From Gammaproteobacteria bacterium (GTDB taxonomy: Bacteria; Pseudomonadota; Gammaproteobacteria; UBA9214): 64,000 nt of DNA. Shown here one piece after another: positions 20,626-38,996 of the stretch. Each line of letters begins with the position of its first letter. The stretch's first letter is position 1. A program made the position numbers and the translations under genes. The DNA is taken from assembly GCA_029860045.1 (NCBI GenBank), contig JAOUBY010000001.1, forward strand, positions 1,026-65,025. The letters are read 5' to 3'. The notes under the pieces are model-generated. The model saw only the letters and a program-made list of their open reading frames with translations, made no database searches and was not told the DNA's origin.

Positions 20626-22020
20626 TTACAATGCCGGAGAATCGAACCGTAATGGTTCAGGCGGCTGGCCGTTTTCGGCCACTTTCTGCTCCGTAAGCCA
20701 TACCAGGATGTCATAGTAGGTGCGGATATTCTGCACATAGCGCACCGGCTCGCGGCCACGCGCATAGCCATAGCGGGTTTGCTGGAACCATTTTTTCTTG
20801 CTGAGCAGGGGCAGGTTCTTTTTGACGTCCACCCACCTGTCCGGGTCACCCTTGTTCTTGATGGTCAGCTTGCGGGCATCTTCCAGGTGTCCCAGCCCGA
20901 CATTGTAGGCGGCCAGCGCCATCCAGGTGCGATCCGGTTCTGGAATATGCTCCGGCAGGCGTTTCGCCATACGCGCAAGATATTCGGCGCCGCCCATGAT
21001 GCTTTGCACCGGGTCGCTGCGGTTCTCTATACCCAGGTCCTTTGCGGCGTTGCGTGTCAGCATCATCAATCCGCGCACCCCGGTGGGTGAGACCGCGCCC
21101 GGGTCCCAGTGGGATTCCTGGTAACCAATCGCGGCCAGCAGTCGCCAGTCCATTCCAATTCCGCTGGCTGCCTCGGTAAACAGCTCCAGGTACTGCGGGA
21201 GCCGTTGTTCGACATGGGCCTGGTAGCGTCGCGTGCCTACATAATCGAATGTCTCGATATGTCCGAAGTAGCGTTCGATCAATTGTTCCAGCGTCCCGTC
21301 GTGCATGATCTGTTTAAAGAACGCGCCTGCCGCCAGGAACAGGCTGTTGTCCTCACTATTGGGGAAAGCCCATGCCAGGGGCTGGGGTTCATCCAGGTCA
21401 AAGGCGGGTTTGAGCTCCGGGTAATAGTGTCGGTTTACCGCAAGCTCGTGTGAATCCGCCACGGTATAGTCGATCAATTGCTGCCAAACCAGGGTCAGCA
21501 GTTCTTCGCTGCTTTGCTCCGGCTGGGCTTCCCAGCTCAGTTCCGTAAATTCCTGCTTGAGTTCTTCCAGCCGCTCCTCGTGACTGCTGCCGGCAACGAC
21601 TTCGAGTGTGCCCTGCAGGTCGCCCGCTGACCTGGGCCGTTTTGAGCCGCTGCGATAAACCAGTTGCGGGGTAATCTGGTGGTAATTCGGGCCGAAGCGT
21701 ACCTTCTCCCGGCGTTTCTCGGTGGCGGTAAGGCCGGCCGCTGCCAGGTGTGCGTCACCGAGTGCGACCAGTGGCAGGATGTCATTGAAGTTGGGCGGGA
21801 TAACGATGTGCAGCTCCACGCCCAGGTAATCGGCAAAGCGTTTCGCCAGTTCGTACTCAAAGCCGGTTGGTCCGTTGGGACCCTCATAGTAGGTCGTTGC
21901 ACTGTTGCGGGAAATGACGATCAGCTCATTTTTCTGCTGAACCTGTTCCAGCATGGAGGGCGCAGGTCCACAGGCCATCAGTCCGAGACAGAGTATGCAG
22001 CCCAGTAGAAACACAGGCAT
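20626..22020 (-). CDS. mltF: membrane-bound lytic murein transglycosylase F
   Basis: N-terminal SBP_bac_3-like domain plus C-terminal SLT domain (AIGYQESHWDP); start at MPVFLLGCILCLGLMACG lipoprotein signal. Confidence 0.85.
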   Translation of the reverse strand: MPVFLLGCILCLGLMACGPAPSMLEQVQQKNELIVISRNSATTYYEGPNGPTGFEYELAKRFADYLGVELHIVIPPNFNDILPLVALGDAHLAAAGLTATEKRREKVRFGPNYHQITPQLVYRSGSKRPRSAGDLQGTLEVVAGSSHEERLEELKQEFTELSWEAQPEQSSEELLTLVWQQLIDYTVADSHELAVNRHYYPELKPAFDLDEPQPLAWAFPNSEDNSLFLAAGAFFKQIMHDGTLEQLIERYFGHIETFDYVGTRRYQAHVEQRLPQYLELFTEAASGIGMDWRLLAAIGYQESHWDPGAVSPTGVRGLMMLTRNAAKDLGIENRSDPVQSIMGGAEYLARMAKRLPEHIPEPDRTWMALAAYNVGLGHLEDARKLTIKNKGDPDRWVDVKKNLPLLSKKKWFQQTRYGYARGREPVRYVQNIRTYYDILVWLTEQKVAENGQPPEPLRFDSPAL

Positions 22021-22211
22021 GGCAGTTGCCACTGTGCATGCGCTAGAATGTGCAGCCGCAACAGCTTGCTGGAATCGCGCCGTGTTCGGTACTGCTTGTG
22101 TAGACTGCCTGGTCATTCCTGCACAGATGATATTCCTGATTGATTGTGGGGTTATAATACCCTAATTGGGTGCTAAATATTTCAGATATATACCCGTTAT
22201 TCCAGTTTTCT

Positions 22212-28480: not shown

Positions 28481-30889
28481 TCAGGCGGCCTCGTGTATTG
28501 GCAGTTCGAAGGAGAATTCCGCGCCACCGCCGGCCAGCGTCCTGGCAAAGATGTTGCCGGCGTGGGACTCGACTATGGAACGACTGATCGATAGCCCGAT
28601 CCCCATGCCGTCCGGCTTGGTCGAATAAAATGCATCGAATATTTTCGGTAGTGCTTCCTTGGATACGCCTTGTCCGGTATCAGAAGCGATGAGCTGTACG
28701 GTCTCCCCGTTACTGCGCGTGGTAATCTTTAGCTGGCGGCTTCCTGTCTCGGTCATATCCATGGCGTCAATGCTGTTGCGGATGAAGTTCAGTATCACCT
28801 GTTCGAGCTGGATCATGTTGCCCAGTACGGGCGGCAGTTCCTTGTCCAGGTCGAGTTCGATACCGACATCATGCCTGCGCGCTTCCATCATGACCAGCGC
28901 GGTAATGTTGCTGGCCGCCTTGTTCAGGTCCACCAGAGTACGTTCAGCGCTTTCTTTTTGCACAAATTCACGGATATTGCGGATGATATTGGCCGCCAGT
29001 GTGGCGCCTTCAATAGCCCGCTCCATGCCCTCGACGATCTTGTCAGTATCACTCGTGCCATCGCGCAAAAGACGCAGGCAGCCGCTGCTGTAGTTGATAG
29101 CGCCAGTCAGCGGCTGGTTGAGTTCATGGGCGAGGCTGGCCGCCATCTCGCCGATCGTGCTCATGCGCGAGACGCGCGCCAGTTCCGACTGGTGCCGCTG
29201 CTGTGATTCAGAGGCTAGTTGTCGTTCCATTTCGTCACCGATCCACTGGGCCATGACCTTGAGCAACTCGAGGTCCCATTTGCTGAGGTGCTTTTCGCGA
29301 ATCCCTGTACCGGCGAACTCCAGTGTGCAATGGACGCGTCCTTCCACCAGCACTGCGGTGCCGAGGTAGCTCTGCAAGCCCTGTACCTCGCAGTCCGGGC
29401 AGGACACCCTGGCCGCGGAGAGGTCCGGTACATCGAGCGGTTCGCCATGCAATGCGATCAGTTTACTTGCGCCCTTTGCATTCAGGGGGCCCGGGTTTTC
29501 AGGTATCAGGCCTGCCTCGCCGGAGGTCTTGCAGTGGCAAACACCCTGCTCGTTACGCTCGGCACTGGACAGTACCGCAACGGGAAGATCGAAATACGCG
29601 CGACCCGTCTCCAGCAGACGGGACATCCGCTCGTCGTGTGAGAGTTCCGGGGCACTGGTAATGCGCACCAGTTCGCGTAGCGCCACCCGGCTTTTCTCCA
29701 GCCCCTCGTTGGTGGTCTTCAGGTCTTCGGTACGCGTCGCGACCTGTTCTTCCAGCGTGTCGCGGTAGCGAGCCAGTTTCGCCTGTGATTTTTCGCGTTC
29801 CTTGATTTCCCGGCGCAGGTTACGCTCGGTATCCTTGAGCCTGCGGTTGGTGTTGGATATATAGCCGTTCAGCAGCACCAGGAAGCCCAGCAGCAGCCCA
29901 ATCCCGACAAACCACCAGGCGTAGCGCTTGAGCATCCCGAGAAAGGAAGCCTGGCGCAGTACTTCGTAGGGGCCAATCTGCAGTGCCTGCATCAGATCAT
30001 GCACAGGGGAGTAGTCCAGCGGTACCGTCCATCCGGCCATGCGCGCCGCCTGTGTGGCGGGGTGGTTGGCCGGCATCGATAGCAGTGCCTGGGCCACGCG
30101 GGTGGCGAGTTCCCTGGGGGCATTCTTTGTCATTGCGAATGGCCACTCGGGGTATAAGCGAGTACTCAGCGGGAAGGGCGTGTTGTCCAGGCTCTGCGGA
30201 TTGAGGATGCAAAACTCGCCCTCGGCCACCTTGCCGCTTTCAATCATCCGCACCAGTGTTTCGGCCCGCACTGTCGCCGCATCGATCTCGCCCTTGTGTA
30301 CGGCCATGATGATCTTGTCCTGGGGAAAACCGGCAAAGTGCAGTTCGCGGATGTCGCTGAAGGGATCAATGCCATGCTCATTCAGTTCCCGCCAGGCCAT
30401 CTGGAAACCGCCAAAGGCTTTTTGGCTGACGGCCATAAAGGATTTGCCTTTCAGGTCAGCAAGCGTAGTGATGTCGGGTCGGTCGGCGCGCGCGATGATC
30501 ACGGCGCCATAGCGAACGCGGGTTTGCTCGCCCTCGCGGGTCTGCATGGTGGCGATACGTGAAACACCGTGGCTTGTTTCCAGGCTGACATAGTTGCCCG
30601 GATTGGTGAGTGTAAAGTGGATGTATCCTTCCTGAATGGCCCGGGGCATTTCCTCGAGGTTGACGGGCACAATCTCGAAGTGATGGGTGGTTATTCTTTC
30701 AGACAGATAGTCTGCGGTCGGTGACCAGCGCTCCACCGCCTCTTGCTTGCCACGGTGGGCCAGCACACCGATGCGTACGACCGTGACCTGATCAGTGGGC
30801 GAGGCCGGGGTCGCAGGCGTGCTCACCAGCAGCATGGGCAGCAGCAGTGGCACCAGCAAGTGCCAGCGTGGTTTGATTGACCGGAACAT
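28481..30889 (-). CDS. sensor histidine kinase with periplasmic PhnD/SsuA-like binding domain (TtrS-like)
   Basis: Signal peptide, ~300-aa periplasmic PBP-like domain, TM, coiled coil, GAF-like region, HisKA (HELNQPL) and HATPase (GMGIGLSISRSIV). Confidence 0.8.
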   Translation of the reverse strand: MFRSIKPRWHLLVPLLLPMLLVSTPATPASPTDQVTVVRIGVLAHRGKQEAVERWSPTADYLSERITTHHFEIVPVNLEEMPRAIQEGYIHFTLTNPGNYVSLETSHGVSRIATMQTREGEQTRVRYGAVIIARADRPDITTLADLKGKSFMAVSQKAFGGFQMAWRELNEHGIDPFSDIRELHFAGFPQDKIIMAVHKGEIDAATVRAETLVRMIESGKVAEGEFCILNPQSLDNTPFPLSTRLYPEWPFAMTKNAPRELATRVAQALLSMPANHPATQAARMAGWTVPLDYSPVHDLMQALQIGPYEVLRQASFLGMLKRYAWWFVGIGLLLGFLVLLNGYISNTNRRLKDTERNLRREIKEREKSQAKLARYRDTLEEQVATRTEDLKTTNEGLEKSRVALRELVRITSAPELSHDERMSRLLETGRAYFDLPVAVLSSAERNEQGVCHCKTSGEAGLIPENPGPLNAKGASKLIALHGEPLDVPDLSAARVSCPDCEVQGLQSYLGTAVLVEGRVHCTLEFAGTGIREKHLSKWDLELLKVMAQWIGDEMERQLASESQQRHQSELARVSRMSTIGEMAASLAHELNQPLTGAINYSSGCLRLLRDGTSDTDKIVEGMERAIEGATLAANIIRNIREFVQKESAERTLVDLNKAASNITALVMMEARRHDVGIELDLDKELPPVLGNMIQLEQVILNFIRNSIDAMDMTETGSRQLKITTRSNGETVQLIASDTGQGVSKEALPKIFDAFYSTKPDGMGIGLSISRSIVESHAGNIFARTLAGGGAEFSFELPIHEAA

Positions 30890-31336: not shown

Positions 31337-31426
31337 GGAGAGGTGTCCGAGTGGTTGAAGGAGCACGCCTGGAAAGTGTGTATACGTGCAAACGTATCGA
31401 GGGTTCGAATCCCTCTCTCTCCGCCA
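31337..31426 (+). tRNA. tRNA-Ser (anticodon GGA)
   Basis: GGAGAGG...anticodon stem CACGC/GTGTG with loop CTGGAAA, long variable arm, GAGGG-TTCGAAT-CCCTC, TCTCTCC-G-CCA. Confidence 0.85.
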
Positions 31427-31796
31427 AGCAGTCTGGTCTCTGTCCCGCGTCTCTGCGGGGCAGGGCCAATCCAACAAGAATTCAGCTGCTTACGCGGTAT
31501 TAGTGGCTACATTAAGACCCTCAAACCGAACTGCTTCGCGTGATATTTCCAAGAAATCCCGAATCGTCTCAAACGCGAATTTTGCGAGTTCGGTTTCGTG
31601 TTTTTTCTTGGCAATTAAAGCATTAGGTAATGTGTATTTGCTTGAATTGAAAAACACGAAAATAGACGATTTGAAATAGGCATTCCGGCAGCTGCGAACT
31701 CGAGGTACGGTTTGGGTGTTGAAGCAAAATGCTGGCCTGACAGAATGGTGTTAGATGTGTTCGATTTACGTATGACCGTTATGGCCATGTCCGGAG
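31408..31796 (+). repeat. direct repeat copy 1: tRNA-Ser(GGA) 3' end plus ~370 bp downstream flank
   Basis: Matches 33934-34170 and 36643-36850; copy 2 lacks the 31586-31708 block (CGGTTT microhomology at the deletion edges). Confidence 0.8.
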
Positions 31797-31892
31797 GCTT
31801 AAATATAAAAAATAATGACTCCTGGTGGAGCCGTTATCGATGCTGGCAGAGGGGATAACTTTTTGTCGTTAATCCAAGTATCGTTTCTCAAA

Positions 31893-32171
31893 TCAGAATT
31901 TATCAATCATGTCACGCAAACGCTTCTGTAACGATTCGGGGGTATGCTTTGTAGCCGCGTTTTTTATGCGGGCCGATAATGCACTTTCAACCTGTGAACG
32001 CGTGAAACAACTATGGCAGTGCTCCAGATGATACTCTAGCTTGCCGATTGAATCGGCATCATCGACCTCGCCATCGAGATAGGCGTAGAGCTTGTCGATC
32101 GCTTCTGTGCAGTTAATATCTTCTATATTTTCACTGTCTTTATCAGTCGTCATTTGATTTTCCTTCCGCAC
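31893..32171 (-). CDS. zinc-binding (ZAS, zf-HC2) anti-sigma factor
   Basis: 92 aa; HLEHCHSC = HxxxCxxC; overlaps upstream ECF sigma gene by 29 nt. Confidence 0.75.
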   Translation of the reverse strand: MRKENQMTTDKDSENIEDINCTEAIDKLYAYLDGEVDDADSIGKLEYHLEHCHSCFTRSQVESALSARIKNAATKHTPESLQKRLRDMIDKF

Positions 32172-32766
32172 ATTTACACTCGATCAAACCTTCGTCACTG
32201 GCCTGTTGCCAGAGCGCTTTTTGCAACAGCGTACGTCCGCGCTTCATGCGGGAATGAACTGTGCCGGGCGGCACACCAAGCACCACTGCCGTTTCATCGT
32301 AAGATAAACCCTCGACGTTAACCAGCAATATGGTCGTCCTGAATGCATCAGGCAGGCTGTCGATGGCCATCATGATGTCCTCGCCGAGCAGGCTGTTTAC
32401 AAACGCCTTTTCCGGATTGGCCCACCAGTACATAAACTCGTTTGACTGCTGGATTACCAGGTCGCCGATTTCATCCTTGCCTTCCGCAACTGACAACTCA
32501 TCGTAGCTGGACTCACAGGGGCGCGCCGACTTTTTCCGATAGTCACTGATAAAGCAGTTGTGCAGGATACGAAACAGCCAAGGCCGAAACCGGCTTCGAT
32601 CCTCCAGCTTCCCAACCGCCGCCCATGCCTTTGCCACGGACTCAGCTACAAGGTCTTCAGCTTCTGCATTGTTGCGCGTCAGGCGAAAAGCTACGCTGAA
32701 CAATGAACCCATGTTTTCCTCAATACCCTGGCTGAACCAGGCTTTGAGAATTTCCCTATCCGACAT
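32143..32766 (-). CDS. ECF (sigma-70 family, group IV) RNA polymerase sigma factor
   Basis: 207 aa; region 2 (FRPWLFRILHNCFISDYRK) and region 4 (LSYDETAVVLGVPPGTVHSRMKRGR) signatures. Confidence 0.8.
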   Translation of the reverse strand: MSDREILKAWFSQGIEENMGSLFSVAFRLTRNNAEAEDLVAESVAKAWAAVGKLEDRSRFRPWLFRILHNCFISDYRKKSARPCESSYDELSVAEGKDEIGDLVIQQSNEFMYWWANPEKAFVNSLLGEDIMMAIDSLPDAFRTTILLVNVEGLSYDETAVVLGVPPGTVHSRMKRGRTLLQKALWQQASDEGLIECKCAEGKSNDD

Positions 32767-32945
32767 TAATCCTTATTCCTCGTCATTTTCGGCACTCCGG
32801 CCCTGTTTCTGTGCCTCATTATATTCCCTCCGGTCCTGTGTCTCCTTCTTGTGCTTCGGTCGAGCGCATGGATCATGAGGCATACCAACTTATGTGACAG
32901 GCCCCGAAACTGGTAACAATTTCAGGGCCTGCATGAATATGTTCA

Positions 32946-33314
32946 TCAGAAACTCAACGTGGTCGCACCCTGTCTGACCTTCTCCAGCATCGCCACAGAA
33001 CCAGCAAACTGCACACCGTCAATAAAGTCTTCCTGGTCGTAACCGCGAACTTTCGCACAGGGCGGACAGCACATGATGGTACCGCCATTGTTAATAATGC
33101 CATCAATCATTTCCCTGGCCGGCGGGTCTAGTGGGTTCAATCGGGCTGCATCGGCGGCCCCTTTACGAACCCAGTCCACACCAGAGCTGACCAGGAACAT
33201 CGTTACTTCAAAGTCTGAAGCAATTCCGCCATTCGCTACGCTCCAGGCGACTGATGACCTTTCGTTATCGAGACCATTTGTTACCACAACAACCAGTTTT
33301 TTCTTGTCCGACAT
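32946..33314 (-). CDS. DsrE/DsrF/YchN-like family protein
   Basis: 122 aa; strand order and C-terminus resemble YchN (KLVVVVTNG..., ...GVQFAGSVAMLEKVRQGATTLSF); Cys pair CCPPC. Confidence 0.55.
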   Translation of the reverse strand: MSDKKKLVVVVTNGLDNERSSVAWSVANGGIASDFEVTMFLVSSGVDWVRKGAADAARLNPLDPPAREMIDGIINNGGTIMCCPPCAKVRGYDQEDFIDGVQFAGSVAMLEKVRQGATTLSF

Positions 33315-33636
33315 AACTATCTCCTTTGCGTGTATATTCTTAACAAGCTGATTTCCTCAGCAGTTGGCACGAATAATTGCGTGCTTACCAGTTAAGACGC
33401 AAAAGAAAGCTGTTCAGGTCCCGGAATCCAGAGATTTTCTGAAATAATTAAATATCGCTCTAGCAAGGGCGTATCACCAAACGCTAAATAACCGTTTCGG
33501 GTCGAACACCGTCGTTTAGCAATCATTCATATAAGGCGATGGCGTGAGTCGTCTAGTAGGGCTTGTTGCTCTAGATCTGATACTGTTAATCAGCATAGAT
33601 AACGACAAATACAGCCTGGGGAAACCGAACTGGCAA

Positions 33637-33720
33637 GTATTTCGACTCCCAGTGAAACGGCCAGAAATATGGTCCTTGTCTCTTCCAGCGAATTCGGGCT
33701 TTTTCGAGGGTATTACTCGC
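33637..33720 (+). repeat. degenerate partial copy of the tRNA-Ser(GGA) flank (AAACCGAACTG...GCGAATT)
   Basis: Shares AAACCGAACTG, ATTTC, CAGAAAT, GTCTC, GCGAATT blocks in the same order as 31513-31580. Confidence 0.35.
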
Positions 33721-33754
33721 CAAGTTTCAGGAGGTTGCAATTCGTAGCAGTACC

Positions 33755-33817
33755 GAGGTTTCGAATCCATATCTCTCCGCCAATAATCAAAAAGGCTCCA
33801 AATGGAGCCTTTTTGAT
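33755..33817 (+). repeat. degenerate tRNA-Ser 3'-end remnant (T-loop and acceptor: GGTTTCGAATCCATATCTCTCCGCCA) followed by terminator-like hairpin
   Basis: 21/24 identity to the tRNA-Ser(GGA) 3' end; followed by AAAAAGGCTCCaaatGGAGCCTTTTT, like the terminator after tRNA-Ser(CGA). Confidence 0.5.
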
Positions 33818-33933
33818 TATCAGTAAAGGGGTTCGAACCTTCAATGATCAATTGGCGGTTCGACAAAATCGCCGGGAGCGATTCTGAGTGAGCGATGCGA
33901 ACCTGAAGGGCAGGGCACAGGGAAGTGCCCTGC

Positions 33934-34170
33934 AATCCCTCTCTCTCCGCCAAGCAGTCTGGTCTCTGTCCCGCCTCTCTGCGGGGCAGGGCCAATCCAA
34001 TAAGAATTCAGCTGCAAGACCCTCAAACCGAACTGCTTCACGTGACATTTCCAAGAAATCCCGAATCGTCTCAAACGCGAATCTTGCGAATTCGGTTTGG
34101 GTGCTTTAGAAAATGTTGCCCTGACAGAATAGTGTCAGATGTGATTGACTCGCGAATGACCGTTTACGGT
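33934..34170 (+). repeat. direct repeat copy 2: last 19 nt of tRNA-Ser(GGA) plus flank
   Basis: AATCCCTCTCTCTCCGCCAAGCAGTCTGGTCTCTGTCCCGC... collinear with copy 1, with internal deletion. Confidence 0.8.
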
Positions 34171-34284
34171 GGCGGTCTCAATGGGTCGACGCAACACCCG
34201 CACGAGACCGCGCTCCCAGGTCTCGGCCATCAAAGTCAATTTAGAGCTATCCAGAGCACTGGCACGATAAGGGCTTGCCTGTGA

Positions 34285-34502
34285 TCGAGCGAATACCTCG
34301 AACAACAGTTAAGCGCCGAAAAACGCTGTCTGAATAGGCGTTCGCCGCTGGGCATTACCGATCTGACCACAGAAGATGGCCGCGTCACCATCATGATGCC
34401 GCATCCGGAGCGCGTGTCCGTACGTACACCAACTCTTGGCATCCGGCAGAGTGGGGCCAGGATGGCCCGTGGCTGCGCATGTTCCGCAATGCGCGTGCGT
34501 AG
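34285..34502 (+). pseudogene. purL: 3'-terminal fragment of purL (phosphoribosylformylglycinamidine synthase), frameshifted
   Basis: Translation ...[28 protein letters not shown] then -1 shift ...[23 protein letters not shown] matches the last ~55 residues of single-chain PurL; in-frame stop immediately upstream. Confidence 0.65.
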
Positions 34503-34538
34503 GTGAATTAGAGGGAAGCTGGCTGTTTTTCCCTGGTT

Positions 34539-35117
34539 TTAAAGAACGCAGCTTGGGGAAGTCAGCGAAGAGGCCACCGTGGATCCGGACGGCATAACTT
34601 TTATTTCCCGCCCGTAACTGGTACCGCGATCATCGCAGATGGACATGACAGCAGTACCTCCATTCCCGTCAGCGTTTCCTGAGTAGCCAAATCTGATATT
34701 GCTGTCCCACGCGGTGTTTGTATGTATTACCACATCCTGCGCGGCTGCCTGGCTGCGGCGAAGTAAAATATCAGTTCCTGCATCATAGATAGTGTTCGTT
34801 TTTTTACCGTCATCTGCAAAGATAAGGTACCCACCAGTCCATACCTGCTGGGTTCCGCCGCAGCTTGGGCTGGTTGCGTCGGGGTTGGCGCTCCGGCACA
34901 TGATTACAGTCGTGCTGCGCTTGACAGCCTCGTTACGGGCAAAATGGATGTCAGTGATAATACTGTTCGTCTGGGTTGCGAGCCGGCTGCTTTTTATCAT
35001 GGCGCTGAATGATGGGACTGCAGCAGACAGAAGAATTGCAACAACCACCAGTGTGATCATCATCTCAACGAGGGTGAAGCCGCCGCTGTATTTGATAGCC
35101 CTTGGTCCGGTTTTCAT
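34539..35117 (-). CDS. type IV pilus minor pseudopilin, GspH/FimT family (orphan)
   Basis: Prepilin N-terminus KYSGGFTLVEMMITLVVVAILL (G-F-T-L-V-E cleavage/methylation motif); no neighbouring pilus genes. Confidence 0.7.
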   Translation of the reverse strand: MKTGPRAIKYSGGFTLVEMMITLVVVAILLSAAVPSFSAMIKSSRLATQTNSIITDIHFARNEAVKRSTTVIMCRSANPDATSPSCGGTQQVWTGGYLIFADDGKKTNTIYDAGTDILLRRSQAAAQDVVIHTNTAWDSNIRFGYSGNADGNGGTAVMSICDDRGTSYGREIKVMPSGSTVASSLTSPSCVL

Positions 35118-35404
35118 AGTTCGTCCACCGTATTGCTAGTGTATGTTTACTATTATTTTGCAGGTACACGTATATCCTATATATAAAAACACCATCAATA
35201 TATTGGACTAAAGTGCAGGCAGTAGAAGGATTCATCCTCTGCCGCTTCATTCCTCGATTAAGAAATGCATTTGCGACATCTGGTGCTCAATAACTCATGG
35301 AATCTTTAACAGAAGAATGGAAAAGAGTTGGGCTATAATTGTGTGTATTCAAACATCACTCAATGAGTAGAAATACGGTGAGGGCCTCCCCAAAACTGGA
35401 GCAC

Positions 35405-36172
35405 TCATAAGTCGAGATTTCCGGCTTCAAGGTGCCGATCCCTGAATTCGATCGGCGTTAAATCTTTCAGCGATGAGTGTGGGCGAAAGGTATTGTATTC
35501 CTCCCGCCACGACTCGATCTTCTCACGCGCATCATCCAGCGACAAGAACCAGTGACTGTTCAGACATTCATCCCGAAAGCTGCCGTTAAATGATTCGATA
35601 AACGGGTTATCCGTTGGTTTCCCCGGCCTGGAGAAGTCCAATGTCACACCGTTCTCGTAGGCCCACTTATCCAGAACCTTCGAAATAAACTCGCTGCCGT
35701 TGTCCACCTGAATGCGATCAGGGCATCGGTCATGGCATCGCTGCATGTGTGCCATGATACCCACAACATGCTCTCCTCGGATGCTGCGATCAACATGGAT
35801 AAGCATGCATTCTCGACTAAAATTATCGACCACAGTTAACGCCCGAATGCGCGAGCCGTCAAACAGATTGTCGGCTACAAAATCCATGCTCCAGCACTGA
35901 TCGATTGTAGACAGCTCGGGGCGCTCCATCCGGTGTGCTGCCGCAACATGGCGCCTTGGCCGCTTGCTCCTTAGATTTAACCCTTCCTCTTTGTATATGC
36001 GGTGAACTTTCTTATGGTTGACCTGCCAGCCTTCTCGCCGAAGCAACACGTGGATGCGCTGATAACCATAACGCATCCGCGTGGCTGCAATCTCCTTGAT
36101 CCGTTGACGCAGTACCGTATCGGGGCTGCGCCGTGACTTGTAGTGATAGACTGACTCCGATATCGCTACCAC
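35405..36172 (-). CDS. IS3-family transposase OrfB (DDE integrase core), expressed by -1 frameshift from OrfA
   Basis: rve-domain pattern (DNGSEF..., HSSLKDLTPIEF). Confidence 0.85.
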   Translation of the reverse strand: MVAISESVYHYKSRRSPDTVLRQRIKEIAATRMRYGYQRIHVLLRREGWQVNHKKVHRIYKEEGLNLRSKRPRRHVAAAHRMERPELSTIDQCWSMDFVADNLFDGSRIRALTVVDNFSRECMLIHVDRSIRGEHVVGIMAHMQRCHDRCPDRIQVDNGSEFISKVLDKWAYENGVTLDFSRPGKPTDNPFIESFNGSFRDECLNSHWFLSLDDAREKIESWREEYNTFRPHSSLKDLTPIEFRDRHLEAGNLDL

Positions 36173-36246
36173 CTTGCAGGCCCGACGTATTGATGCTCGA
36201 TACGCATCGCGCAGGAAATCAACGAGCTCCCGACGCTTGGCTGGCT

Positions 36247-36513
36247 TCAGAGCTTTTTTTGCAGCACATCCTGAAGCATTTGTTTATCCAGGCTTAAATC
36301 CGCCACCATACGCTTCAATCGGTAGTTCTCGTCTTCCAACTGTTTTAGGCGCCTGACCTCTGAGACCCCAAGCCCACCGTACTTCTTCTTCCAGTTGTAA
36401 AACGTGGCCTCTGATATCCCCATCTTGCGACAGACCTCGTTAACCCGTGCACCTGTCTCAGCTTGGCGCAATGCAAAAGCGATCTGTTGATCTGTGAACT
36501 TTGTTCTCTTCAT
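36247..36513 (-). CDS. IS3-family transposase OrfA (HTH)
   Basis: MKRTKFTDQQIAFALRQAETGARVNEVCRKMGISEATFYNWKKKYGG... leucine-zipper tail; slippery AAAAAAG near its 3' end. Confidence 0.85.
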   Translation of the reverse strand: MKRTKFTDQQIAFALRQAETGARVNEVCRKMGISEATFYNWKKKYGGLGVSEVRRLKQLEDENYRLKRMVADLSLDKQMLQDVLQKKL

Positions 36514-36642
36514 GGCAAATGACTCCTCCTGCTCGTCAATTTTGCCAGAATCCTCTAGTTTTGGATGCTCCAGTTTTCAGGGGGGAGGCCCTCAAGCGCA
36601 GGGAAACTCTAAAAGTATGTGGCACTAAAGTGGGGAGGTTTA

Positions 36643-36850
36643 CCAAGCAGTCTGGTCTCTGTCCCGAGTCTCTGCGGGACAGAGCCAATCCAACAGGAAT
36701 TCAGCAGCTTAGGCTTAAGAAGAGGGTAGATACAGGCCCTGAAACCGAACTGCTTCGCGCGGAATTTCCGCAAATTCCCGAATCGTCTCAAATGCCGAAT
36801 TTGCCAGTTCGGTTTTGTGTTTCTTTTTGGCGATTAATGCCTTAGTTCCT
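36643..36850 (+). repeat. direct repeat copy 3 of the tRNA-Ser(GGA) downstream flank (retains only CCA of the tRNA)
   Basis: CCAAGCAGTCTGGTCTCTGTCCCGAGTCTCTGCGGGAC... collinear with copy 1 to ~31629; compensatory change keeps the GTCCCG/CGGGAC hairpin. Confidence 0.75.
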
Positions 36851-37036: not shown

Positions 37037-37327
37037 ATGAAGAGTAAAAGCACTGTTGTAAATGCAGCTATTGCCGGTGTTCTGGCCATGGGCAGTGGTC
37101 TTGCTACTGTGGCTCATGCGGTTCCGGATCAACCGGCGGAATGGGAAAAGTGTGCAGGTATTGCCAGGGCCGGCATGAATGATTGTGGCGCCCTGGATGG
37201 CAAGCATTCCTGTGCGGGACAGGCCGCTGTTGATAATGACGCAAACGAATGGGTCTACGTTCCCAAAGGTACCTGCACAAAGATCACCGGTGGCGTAGTG
37301 GCTGCGGTGAAACCAGCCAAGAAGTAG
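37037..37327 (+). CDS. bufA: bufferin-type RiPP precursor, BufA1/DUF2282 family
   Basis: 96 aa; AGGAGGG RBS 8 nt upstream; Sec signal MKSKSTVVNAAIAGVLAMGSGLATVAHA; core with 4 Cys in EKCAG..NDCG..HSCAGQ..GTC pattern. Confidence 0.75.
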   Translation: MKSKSTVVNAAIAGVLAMGSGLATVAHAVPDQPAEWEKCAGIARAGMNDCGALDGKHSCAGQAAVDNDANEWVYVPKGTCTKITGGVVAAVKPAKK

Positions 37328-37330
37328 AGT

Positions 37331-38209
37331 TTGTCTACTCAACCTTTGAACACCCTCCGCCCGGGTAACCGGGCGGAGGGTCGCATCACAGGTACTGGCA
37401 TCGGGCTGCGCAGCCCACATATCCGCGAAGTGCTGGATACGCAGCCTGACGTCCCGTGGTTTGAGATACTTACGGACAACCATACCGCGGCTGGTGGGCG
37501 TACTGCAGCGGAACTCATGGCAATCCGTGAATGCTATCCGATAACCTTTCATTGTGTCGGCCTCTCACTTGGCAGCAGCGATCCTTTGGATCAGGGGTAC
37601 CTGGACACGTTGAAGACCATGCATGCACGCTATGAGCCGGCATGGATTTCCGATCATCTGTGCTTCAGCAGCCTCGATGGCACCCATTACCATGATTTAT
37701 TACCATTACCTTTCACCGAAGAGGCGGTAGAGCATGTGGCCAGGCGCATTGGTTTCGTACAGGAATTCCTGGGCCAGCGCATTCTTGTCGAAAATGTCTC
37801 CAGCTATATGGCCTATACCCACTCAGTCCTTTCGGAAGCCGAATTTCTGGCGGCCGTATCCGAGACTGCAGATTGCGACCTGCTACTGGACATCAATAAT
37901 ATCTATGTCAACGAATTCAATCATGGCCTGTCCGGCATCGACTATCTGGATGCCATCCCGTTGCGGCGGGTACGTGAAATCCACCTGGGAGGTTTTGAAG
38001 ACAAGGGAGCCTTTTTGCTGGACGCCCACAATCATGCTGTCAGCAAACCCGTATGGGCCTTGTACCGGGAATGTATAAAGCGTATTCCGGGTACCCCCAC
38101 CTTGATCGAATGGGACAACGATATCCCCGGATTTTCTATATTACAACAGGAAGCTGAAACCGCGCGGCGCATCGCTGCGGAGCAGTCAGCGGCGCAAAAC
38201 GGAGCCTGA
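37331..38209 (+). CDS. bufB: MNIO family (DUF692) multinuclear non-heme iron oxidative enzyme
   Basis: 292 aa; GIGLRSPH...VPWFEILTDNH N-terminal signature of DUF692/MbnB-like TIM barrel; 3-nt gap from bufA. Confidence 0.75.
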   Translation: MSTQPLNTLRPGNRAEGRITGTGIGLRSPHIREVLDTQPDVPWFEILTDNHTAAGGRTAAELMAIRECYPITFHCVGLSLGSSDPLDQGYLDTLKTMHARYEPAWISDHLCFSSLDGTHYHDLLPLPFTEEAVEHVARRIGFVQEFLGQRILVENVSSYMAYTHSVLSEAEFLAAVSETADCDLLLDINNIYVNEFNHGLSGIDYLDAIPLRRVREIHLGGFEDKGAFLLDAHNHAVSKPVWALYRECIKRIPGTPTLIEWDNDIPGFSILQQEAETARRIAAEQSAAQNGA

Positions 38210-38213
38210 CAGA

Positions 38214-38996
38214 ATGCAACTGGCCGACTTCGAGCGCCGTATTATGCAGGGTATCACCCCAGTAGCTGCTACCCAGGACCGGCAAGCCACGGAACAGATG
38301 CTGAAGCCTGGTGGGGAGTTGACGGCCAAAGAGTGTCTGGCTGTTTACCGTAACAACATCACGAGTACCCGGGTGCGTGCGCTGCAAGCCATTTACCCCG
38401 TGTGCGAAACTATTCTGGGCAGTGATTGTTTTCGTGTCCTGGCGAGGGAGTTTGCCTGGCAGGCGGCCGATGCCTGTGCGGACCTCAATGTCTATGGCGG
38501 GCAGCTTGCAGAATACCTGGGCGCACAGCAGCGGAGTAATTTTTCACTGCTACCCTACCTGAAAGAACTGGCCCGGCTGGAATGGAATTGGCACACTGCC
38601 TACTATGCCGCGGATACTGCGCCTTTCGCTTACCAATCATTTTCTAGCGCTGCGGCTCACCCTGAACGATTGCGCTTTACCCTTGCTGACGGTCTTGCTT
38701 TGCTGGAAACAAAATATCCAGTGAGGGAAATCTGGCAACGGCATCGTGCGCGGGAAAATCCGGATAGCATCCCTGCGCTTGAAGCCTGCGAATACCTGTG
38801 CATCCACCGTCCTGATTATGGACCCCAGGTTACATCTCTGGGTAAAACAACATATGTCTTGCTTACACGTATCCAAAAGGGCAGTACGCTGGAACAACTC
38901 GGGGATACAGCAGAGCTAAGCGAAAATCTGGCTGAACTACTACCGGTTCTGATCCAGCGGGGCTGGGTGTCAGGATTCCAGTTGTTGTCGGTATAG
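38214..38996 (+). CDS. bufC: DUF2063 partner protein of MNIO enzyme
   Basis: 260 aa; N-terminal AVYRNNITSTRVRALQAIYPV signature of DUF2063. Confidence 0.7.
   Translation: MQLADFERRIMQGITPVAATQDRQATEQMLKPGGELTAKECLAVYRNNITSTRVRALQAIYPVCETILGSDCFRVLAREFAWQAADACADLNVYGGQLAEYLGAQQRSNFSLLPYLKELARLEWNWHTAYYAADTAPFAYQSFSSAAAHPERLRFTLADGLALLETKYPVREIWQRHRARENPDSIPALEACEYLCIHRPDYGPQVTSLGKTTYVLLTRIQKGSTLEQLGDTAELSENLAELLPVLIQRGWVSGFQLLSV

Follow-up and report, generated by a model that had tools for sequence, protein, structure and literature searches.

Structured repeats and pseudo-tRNA ends downstream of tRNA-Ser(GGA) in an uncultured gammaproteobacterium: a possible tandem array of small non-autonomous modules

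Transfer RNA genes are classic landing sites for foreign DNA, and the mobile units that use them are normally known by their integrases. The locus described here raises the question of what assembled a series of repeats and cargo genes beside a tRNA gene where no integrase is seen. It lies in a 64,000-nt stretch of Gammaproteobacteria bacterium (UBA9214; assembly GCA_029860045.1, contig JAOUBY010000001.1, positions 1,026-65,025), hereafter called the window, in which an intact tRNA-Ser(GGA) gene is followed by a repeated block of about 195 nt that we named F, containing a hairpin, H. A first-pass annotation of this DNA had read the region as an integration hotspot, serially remodelled by related elements whose integrases were later lost. 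We put the chances at about even that the region is a tandem array, anchored at the tRNA-Ser gene, of small non-autonomous modules that resemble cis-mobilizable elements (CIMEs) and depend on a recombinase acting in trans.

Repeat finding and a covariance model (CM) of F built from relatives (CM R2) both recovered the three direct copies of the tRNA-Ser flank reported by the first-pass annotation, and CM R2 found exactly three in the 64-kb window (coordinates in Table 1). One repeat family joins 31408-31489 to 33934-34015 and 36627-36708, with 98% and 78% identity to copy 1, and a second joins 31514-31596 to 34016-34098 and 36733-36815 (95% and 82%). The stretches 31424-31626 and 36643-36845 are 82% identical over 203 nt, and 31726-31780 and 34110-34164 are 82% identical as well. 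In alignment the copies are collinear and 78-98% identical, above the 70% identity that the first-pass annotation had taken as the floor for its claim. Copy 2 is degraded, with deletions of approximately 24 nt and 112 nt relative to copy 1, and copy 3, whose left neighbour is an IS3-family insertion sequence (IS), is the most divergent of the three (78-82%). The 17-mer CAGTCTGGTCTCTGTCC has three exact occurrences in the window and four with up to three mismatches, compared with 0.11 expected; AAACCGAACTG has seven matches compared with 0.8 expected by chance. In copy 1, H spans 31438-31465, and the arms of a long-range stem (31523-31533 and 31586-31596) precede a T-run at about 31601-31609. 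Of the inverted repeat said to be preserved in every copy, the right arm carries one mismatch in copy 1 and two in copy 2. A motif GTCTC(T/A) occurs three times in one orientation in the best-conserved stretches of F (GGTCTCTG, CGTCTCTG and CGTCTCAAAC; for example 31436-31442, 31449-31455 and 31571-31577), and is a candidate protein-binding repeat.

F is not confined to this genome. A related metagenome contig was reached through a spurious protein match to a minus-strand reading frame in F, and 31 further loci came from one scan of a genome collection and one of metagenomes with the hairpin pattern as query; related loci are labelled L001 (that first contig), L002 and so on. F was present in about 35 loci of uncultured Gammaproteobacteria, the sources including Ectothiorhodospiraceae metagenome-assembled genomes and sediment metagenomes. 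Covariation was tested on 21 distinct F copies with 500 shuffles and slid-partner controls. In H and the long-range stem, 92.8% of cells were paired, compared with 30-52% with slid partners, and changes on both sides were found at seven pairs, in 31 cells; the observed covariation score, percentage of paired cells and number of double-change cells were each reached by none of the 500 shuffles. Compensatory examples across loci include C-G to U-A in H and the replacement of a stem CCGAAC/GTTCGG by CCGGAC/GTCCGG. Covariation across loci shows that H is under structural selection. The first-pass annotation had drawn the same conclusion from a compensatory change in copy 3; the conclusion stands, but that argument for it does not, the changes in the copy 3 hairpin being two one-sided replacements of G.U by A-U and one C to A beside the loop. 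G.U pairs are frequent in the F fold and would be C.A mismatches on the opposite strand; because they fit only the tRNA strand, the fold was assigned to that strand, as RNA or as single-stranded DNA.

F had no Rfam match in the window or in the related loci scanned, and no coding signal, column entropy by codon position being flat (0.79, 0.90 and 0.94). It is a candidate for a covariation-supported structured RNA or DNA motif outside Rfam. The minus-strand frame mentioned above could have been the 3' end of a gene (...ALIAKKKHETELAKFAFETIRDFLEISREAVRFEGL*), possibly an integrase C-terminus, and was rejected because its sole protein match is one spurious metagenome open reading frame (ORF; P0001, in the F region of L001), it has no Pfam domain, the frame is broken in most relatives and the entropy is flat.

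Such a structure might by itself suggest that F is primarily an RNA gene or tRNA 3' trailer, a small RNA freed from the tRNA transcript in the way that tyrT yields rtT RNA, with the extra copies as by-products of rearrangement. The covarying fold with G.U pairs on the tRNA strand only, the start of F just 2 nt past CCA, in copy 1 with no terminator between, the T-run after the closing stem, a terminator-like hairpin called at 36794-36813 in copy 3 and the lack of both a coding signal and an Rfam entry are all in line with this. It leaves unexplained, however, why F recurs two- or threefold with unrelated cargo in several genomes, why it follows two tRNA-Ser isoacceptors and pseudo-tRNAs, and why there are conserved right ends, described below. 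We consider it very unlikely as the primary explanation; an RNA function is compatible with an array of modules and does not exclude it. H itself was ruled out as the tRNA's intrinsic terminator, there being no T-run after it; hairpins with the character of a terminator occur instead at 33783-33820 and, less clearly, where F ends. In copy 3 at 36794-36815, and at the corresponding position of the other F copies, the right arm of the long-range stem has a second possible partner, a nearby GCCGAA, with which it can give a compact hairpin followed by a T-run, an alternative that may be terminator/anti-terminator-like.

The boundaries of F are sharp. Its left junction falls 2 nt after ...CCA in all F loci, and yet the sequence 5' of it may be tRNA-Ser(GGA), tRNA-Ser(GCU) (L010, L025 and L029), an RtT-type unit, a degenerate pseudo-tRNA or a module ending ...ACCACCGCCA. 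The right boundary is no less well defined: a few bases past the right arm of the stem, the continuations split into several unrelated groups. F is thus a discrete structured block of about 195 nt, found in many genomes and beside two tRNA-Ser isoacceptors (GGA and GCU), and not an arbitrary flank. The module ending ...ACCACCGCCA suggested 6S RNA, an identity that was dropped when no Rfam 6S match at E<=1 appeared in 10 loci and the window. A recurrent module of about 90 nt, a TTCCCTG..CAGGGAA hairpin followed by GAGACGAGTTCGCAGCAGACTGCnACCACCGCCA, stands directly 5' of F in L002, L009, L012, L013, L017 (twice), L018, L019, L021, L023, L027 and L028, and in L003 (7500-7575) it stands instead 5' of a terminator and RtT unit. 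Its sequence is in part complementary to the opening 14 nt of F, and it may represent a different form of right end, a tRNA-Ser end that has decayed, or a secondary target.

A second recurrent end lies between F copies 1 and 2. The degenerate tRNA 3' end with a terminator hairpin noted by the first-pass annotation was borne out at 33750-33783 and 33783-33820, and the former is 88% identical to the resident tRNA over 34 nt. Homologous right ends are present in the window, L001, L007, L029 and L014, with GGTTGCAAATC and CCGTACCGA in common, which are missing from the resident tRNAs. Because the resident tRNA of L029 is the GCU isoacceptor, the pseudo-tRNA travels with the module. The degenerate tRNA end at 33750 is therefore a conserved, element-borne right end and not a decayed copy of the resident tRNA.

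The second tRNA remnant has a different origin. As the first-pass annotation had stated, copy 2 keeps the last 19 nt of the tRNA: 33934-33952 matches tRNA positions 58-76 at 19 of 19 positions, on the same strand and 3' of the tRNA. These 19 nt close a divergent RtT-type unit that consists, in order, of an inverted T-arm-like piece, GGTTCGA, a GC-rich multi-hairpin module (M) and the tRNA-Ser end. The unit was recognised over its full length by a model built from RtT-type units of the clade and the E. coli rtT units (CM R1), whose 47 bits come partly from the tRNA-derived ends, the middle module M being divergent. Identity at the level of Rfam was not reached: the RtT family (RF00391) scored 15.4 bits on 33810-33952, below its gathering score of 45 bits, and of the related loci L004 (47.5 bits), L007 (38.6) and L003 (30.3) only L004 exceeds it. 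In L004, L007 and L011 the same terminator hairpin comes directly after an intact tRNA-Ser, and an RtT-type unit closed by the 19-nt tRNA end leads from it to F; the identity between L004 1425-1523 and window 33750-33848 is 85%. Because these relatives and E. coli tyrT show the same unit layout, 33750-34170 is read as a 5'-truncated copy of the whole tRNA-Ser/terminator/RtT unit/F locus. The 19-nt remnant is accordingly the end of an RtT-type unit and not a plain att scar. Distal direct repeats of the 3' part of the tRNA, as expected of an attR-like end, are thus present at 33750-33783 and 33934-33952, and neither is a plain scar.

The likeness to E. coli tyrT extends to details. In both, the final 19 nt of the adjacent tRNA, from A58, close the unit, and GGTTCGA is followed by a GC-rich multi-hairpin module in the same layout. 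The E. coli units are 178 bp long and present in 3.14 tandem copies, whereas the window has a single unit without a tpr-like ORF, the host is not an enterobacterium, and the units are tied to tRNA-Ser (tRNA-Arg in L023) rather than to tRNA-Tyr. Two further arrangements of the RtT module were seen. Tandem repeats of 169-172 nt stand 5' of the intact tRNA-Ser in L007 (2906-3580, four repeats) and L004 (1192-1366), each comprising a copy of the promoter region, the first 22 nt of the tRNA and the GC-rich RtT module of about 80 nt at the position of the D-loop (after GGTTGA). L023 (4238-4311 and 5627-5769) has, 1.3 kb downstream of its intact tRNA-Arg, an RtT-type unit (Rfam 35.1 bits) in which the module interrupts the T-loop of a tRNA-Arg(ACG) reduced to its 3' two-thirds. 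The GC-rich module therefore comes after GGTT(C)GA whether the context is a D-loop or a T-loop, in the manner of a small insertion element, and the tRNA-Arg(ACG) unit shows that RtT-type units occur with tRNAs other than tRNA-Tyr and tRNA-Ser. The E. coli tyrT type of unit is thereby extended to tRNA-Ser and tRNA-Arg in distant Gammaproteobacteria, which hints that the unexplained tyrT repeats may be footprints of the same kind of insertion process.

What stands between and beside the F copies differs from locus to locus. The segments between the F copies of the window are mutually unrelated. The closest relative, L001, has tRNA, F, a backbone segment that we call Fd, F-ext, pseudo-tRNA and hairpin H with no cargo, and its Fd/F-ext junction has 6 nt where the window has about 1.9 kb of cargo (cargo B, carrying sigma, anti-sigma and DsrE genes). 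L007 contains one 1.1-kb module, made up of F, a HigBA-like pair and a right end, after which the flank is not F. In L029, genes for a TOTE AEP-helicase, AbiEii and AbiEi lie between two F copies 4.4 kb apart; L017 has two F copies 2 kb apart, L005 one F copy with the inverted repeat, and L008 hairpin H alone. At least eight loci have HigBA-like cargo adjoining either F or a right end. Because relatives hold one or two F with different or no cargo, occupancy is polymorphic among relatives, as the comparison of the window with L001, L007, L029, L005 and L008 shows, and the triplication is not a universally conserved feature.

These observations can be joined in one scheme. A module has F as its left end, folding on the tRNA strand and beginning 2 nt past a tRNA-Ser-type ...CCGCCA, and, when intact, F-ext and a pseudo-tRNA-Ser 3' half also ending ...CCGCCA as its right end. 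A site-specific recombinase supplied in trans would catalyse insertion at the CCA end of a tRNA-Ser-like target, which may be a genuine tRNA gene, an RtT unit with its 19-nt end or the pseudo-tRNA of a module already in place, and each new module would displace older ones downstream. By landing directly after CCA, F would replace the 3' trailer and terminator of the tRNA, and we infer that it is co-transcribed with the tRNA. The window would then read as tRNA, F1, the sigma/anti-sigma/DsrE cargo and a right end; behind these would come the former trailer of the tRNA, with its terminator, RtT unit and 19-nt tRNA end, then F2 and cargo D; and, after cargo D (purL scrap, pseudopilin and IS3), F3 followed by the bufferin operon.

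The missing recombinase was sought in several ways. The CIME hallmark of attL/attR-like ends with no integration or transfer genes is shown by module 1 of the window (31427-33783), L001, L007 and L029, all with both ends intact and no recombinase, and the placement of an element at a tRNA 3' end is likewise found, F copy 1 beginning 1 nt after the CCA of tRNA-Ser(GGA); an integrase adjoining the att site, the mark of a genomic island, was not found among the window ORFs examined. Because intact-ended modules lack an integrase in four independent loci, the modules look non-autonomous as a family and not individually decayed. The claim that integrases had been lost later is unsupported. The first-pass reading of the region as an integration hotspot holds as far as a tRNA-anchored, polymorphic locus with serial, non-duplicative insertions is concerned, but its lost integrases do not. 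Two large serine recombinases near F were considered as the missing enzyme and set aside: homologues of the one in L018 occur in two other contexts without F or tRNA-Ser, and that of L032 is encoded by a prophage that interrupts a small ORF some 290 nt past the point where F begins. The L018 gene belongs to a trio of a large serine recombinase and two ParB/RepB-like genes (L018 332-3671, also L044 10001-13340); its homologues among the 120 best matches are 81-97% identical in amino acid sequence and come from Alpha-, Beta- and Gammaproteobacteria, which suggests a very recently spread promiscuous element.

The same findings bear on an account closer to the first-pass annotation, in which three related integrase-encoding islands entered the tRNA site in turn and deletions then removed the integrase of each. 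The tRNA 3' remnants at internal boundaries and the gene scraps (the purL fragment and IS3), taken as ongoing decay, would suit it, and an integration-decay-accretion route is documented for other elements (PMC5704250). It is, however, improbable, given that no integrase pseudogene fragment lies in any segment between F copies, that the minus-strand F frame has neither homologues beyond P0001 nor codon periodicity, that no integrase is present in four modules, each from a different genome, that retain both ends, and that the large serine recombinases close to F are parts of unrelated elements.

Several results weigh against modules moved by a recombinase in trans. Neither an integrase nor a remnant of one came to light in the window, where the sole recombinase among the ORFs examined is the IS3 transposase; the 25 commonest of 102 families listed for 90 ORFs around F in 27 loci include no tyrosine integrase; and no recombinase specific for these ends was found via viral, plasmid and phage collections. 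BLAST with F in plasmid and phage collections returned nothing, the 17-mer gave two chance matches in viral contigs, both inside coding regions, and no autonomous relative emerged from searches of genomes, metagenomes, viruses, plasmids and phages. No empty site or circular junction was observed. Two same-strain assemblies with identical proteins were found (ERZ27296429 and SRR7134660), with the same arrangement and with contigs that break at F copies, and they are uninformative on within-species polymorphism. To the left of copy 3, the CCA noted by the first-pass annotation is present but amounts to 3 nt, and local alignment of this flank gave no similarity to the tRNA or the right-end module above shuffled controls; sequence once there was probably lost through the adjacent IS3. 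A simple form of the scheme also fails to explain why F is frequently truncated just past H, many relatives keeping just its first 60 nt or so (H and CAAGAATTC), or why a segment of about 85 nt, Fe, is joined at different positions in F1 and F2.

The F copies, moreover, share 200-370 nt, far beyond a typical att core, and homologous recombination could suffice. The main rival account is accordingly accretion of the Campbell type, in which F serves as a portable homology of 200-400 nt and enters a resident F by a RecA-dependent single crossover, the donor being a circle or fragment of F and cargo formed by recombination between F copies and taken up by transformation or transduction. It would need no integrase, and none was found; repeats of 203-370 nt at 78-98% identity are longer than site-specific cores require, the 95-98% identity of F1 and F2 fits recent exchange or gene conversion, and assemblies break at F copies as expected of long repeats. 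Homology alone fits less well with the left boundary of F, which is equally sharp (CCA and 2 nt) in five unrelated upstream contexts, and with a conserved pseudo-tRNA right end that also terminates in CCGCCA. In L007 the right end abuts a non-F flank, leaving no second F to provide homology there, and F3, only 78-82% identical to F1, would be a poor RecA substrate. We regard crossover between F copies as possible though doubtful, and insertion of non-autonomous modules at CCGCCA as the better account of the sharp ends.

Arrays of this general kind are known. CIMEs provide a precedent for tandem accretion at tRNA 3' ends (PMC5704250), and tandem ssrA islands of Dehalococcoides are bounded by repeats of about 20 bp, 15 of them lacking an integration module and proposed to be cis-mobilizable (PMC3146451). 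With the CIMEs that accompany integrative and conjugative or integrative and mobilizable elements (ICEs/IMEs), such as the Streptococcus ICESt1/ICESt3 family (PMC5704250), the window shares a tandem array at a tRNA 3' end, att-like tRNA-end repeats kept at internal junctions, members without integration or transfer genes, and growth by insertion beside the target gene. It differs in that no autonomous partner or integrase was seen in about 35 loci, that the left arm is a structured block of about 195 nt and the right arm a pseudo-tRNA half, and that a module measures only 0.4-4.4 kb, which is very small; the likeness does not extend to an origin from an ICE or IME. The Dehalococcoides islands (PMC3146451) likewise form multiple tandem units with variable cargo downstream of a tRNA-like gene, bounded by a repeat of about 20 bp that duplicates the 3' end of that gene and has a conserved motif just 5' of it. 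Those islands, however, usually carry a CcrB-like serine recombinase by attL whereas none is linked here, insertion there is in the T-loop of the tmRNA whereas the joint here would be at the CCA end, and homology here continues for about 200-370 nt beyond the gene. The array thus belongs to a known kind, tRNA-anchored accretion; it stands out by the structured F block and by RtT-type units outside enterobacterial tyrT.

Integron attC sites and their clusters lacking an integrase (CALIN) offer another comparison, with arrays of short cassettes, structured, imperfectly palindromic sites that fold as single strands, and no adjacent recombinase; the F stem arms ACCGAAC/GTTCGGT resemble R''/R' boxes. 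Each arm nevertheless departs at one position from its consensus (RYYYAAC or GTTRRRY), the F block is 195 nt compared with a site of 55-140 nt and on the 5' side of the stem continues for about 100 nt as far as the tRNA end, and the cargo comprises one to three genes, often reversed and with their own signals, with no IntI found. Identity with attC or CALIN was rejected on the box deviations, the 195-nt block and the lack of an integrase. A bolder and rather unlikely idea is that F is a single-strand-folding recombination site, or a tRNA-linked RNA, that together with the pseudo-tRNA right end constitutes an integron-like cassette system at tRNA-Ser, with an unlinked recombinase inserting at CCA and the E. 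coli-type RtT units as minimal, cargo-less relatives. If so, cassettes without an integrase would carry defence, toxin-antitoxin or regulatory genes. The module family is recognisable solely by its ends, a folded trailer block and a pseudo-tRNA half, and if such ends suffice for mobilisation in trans, many integrase-less tRNA hotspots might be explained alike, including those with TOTE/AbiE and HigBA-like defence cargo.

Table 1 Features of the tRNA-Ser(GGA) region in window coordinates
Feature	Position	Strand	Evidence
Intact tRNA-Ser(GGA), array anchor	31337-31426	+	ARAGORN; Rfam tRNA 52.2 bits
F copy 1 (F-core)	31427-31622	+	CM R2 195 bits; repeat families
Fd backbone segment	31597-31712	+	96% identical to L001, 89% to L004; runs straight into right-end module there
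Fe, about 85 nt, shared by starts of cargo B and D	31708-31796; second copy 34093-34170	+	81-82% repeats
Cargo B: zf-HC2 anti-sigma (31893-32171), ECF sigma (32143-32766), DsrE (32946-33314)	31893-33314	-	Pfam
Right-end module: F-ext (33616-33749) and pseudo-tRNA-Ser 3' half ending CCGCCA (33750-33783)	33616-33783	+	73% identity to L001 over 164 nt; aligns with L007, L029 and L014 right ends
Perfect 18-bp hairpin and T-run (intrinsic terminator)	33783-33820	+	Inverted repeat
Divergent RtT-type unit	33821-33952	+	CM R1 47 bits, E~3e-13, full length
F copy 2	33953-34124, Fe segment after it, to 34170	+	CM R2 136 bits; alignment
Frameshifted purL (FGAM synthase) 3' fragment, cargo D	34330-34502	+	GATase_5 positions 205-257 of 260, E 3.6e-17
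GspH/FimT-type pseudopilin, cargo D	34539-35117	-	Pfam GspH, N_methyl
IS3-family IS: orfA (36247-36513), orfB (35405-36172)	35385-36584	-	Pfam HTH_Tnp_1, rve
F copy 3, intact F-core	36646-36841	+	CM R2 200 bits; 82% over 203 nt to copy 1
Bufferin operon: BufA1/DUF2282, MNIO MbnB_TglH_ChrH, DUF2063/HvfC_N; downstream of F copy 3	37037-38996	+	Pfam

Pfam confirmed every cargo assignment of the first-pass annotation, namely the extracytoplasmic function (ECF) sigma, anti-sigma and DsrE genes, the pseudopilin with the IS, and the bufferin operon. The IS satisfies the description of the IS3 family, with overlapping orfA and orfB frames and terminal inverted repeats of 41 nt that are 73% complementary. 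The G + C content is 0.42-0.55 across 30.8-39.2 kb, compared with about 0.58-0.64 in the flanks. The low-GC tract runs past F copy 3, takes in the whole bufferin operon and ends near an RND pump gene (39250), and the operon may be acquired cargo of the oldest module.

Fe carries a hairpin CTGACAG...GT(C/T)AG and follows CGGTTT in both places; it is absent from all related loci. It is possibly a second insertion layer or the end of a second kind of inserted unit. No full-length purL was found in the window, and a gene for MltF, a neighbour of purL in E. coli, lies at 20626-22116; the purL fragment may be a relic of an ancestral gene order downstream of tRNA-Ser genes. At 29108-29201, ARAGORN called a 94-nt tRNA-Gly(GCC) inside an ORF for an 802-aa histidine kinase (28481-30889, minus strand), a place where Rfam has no tRNA, and the call is most likely a false positive.

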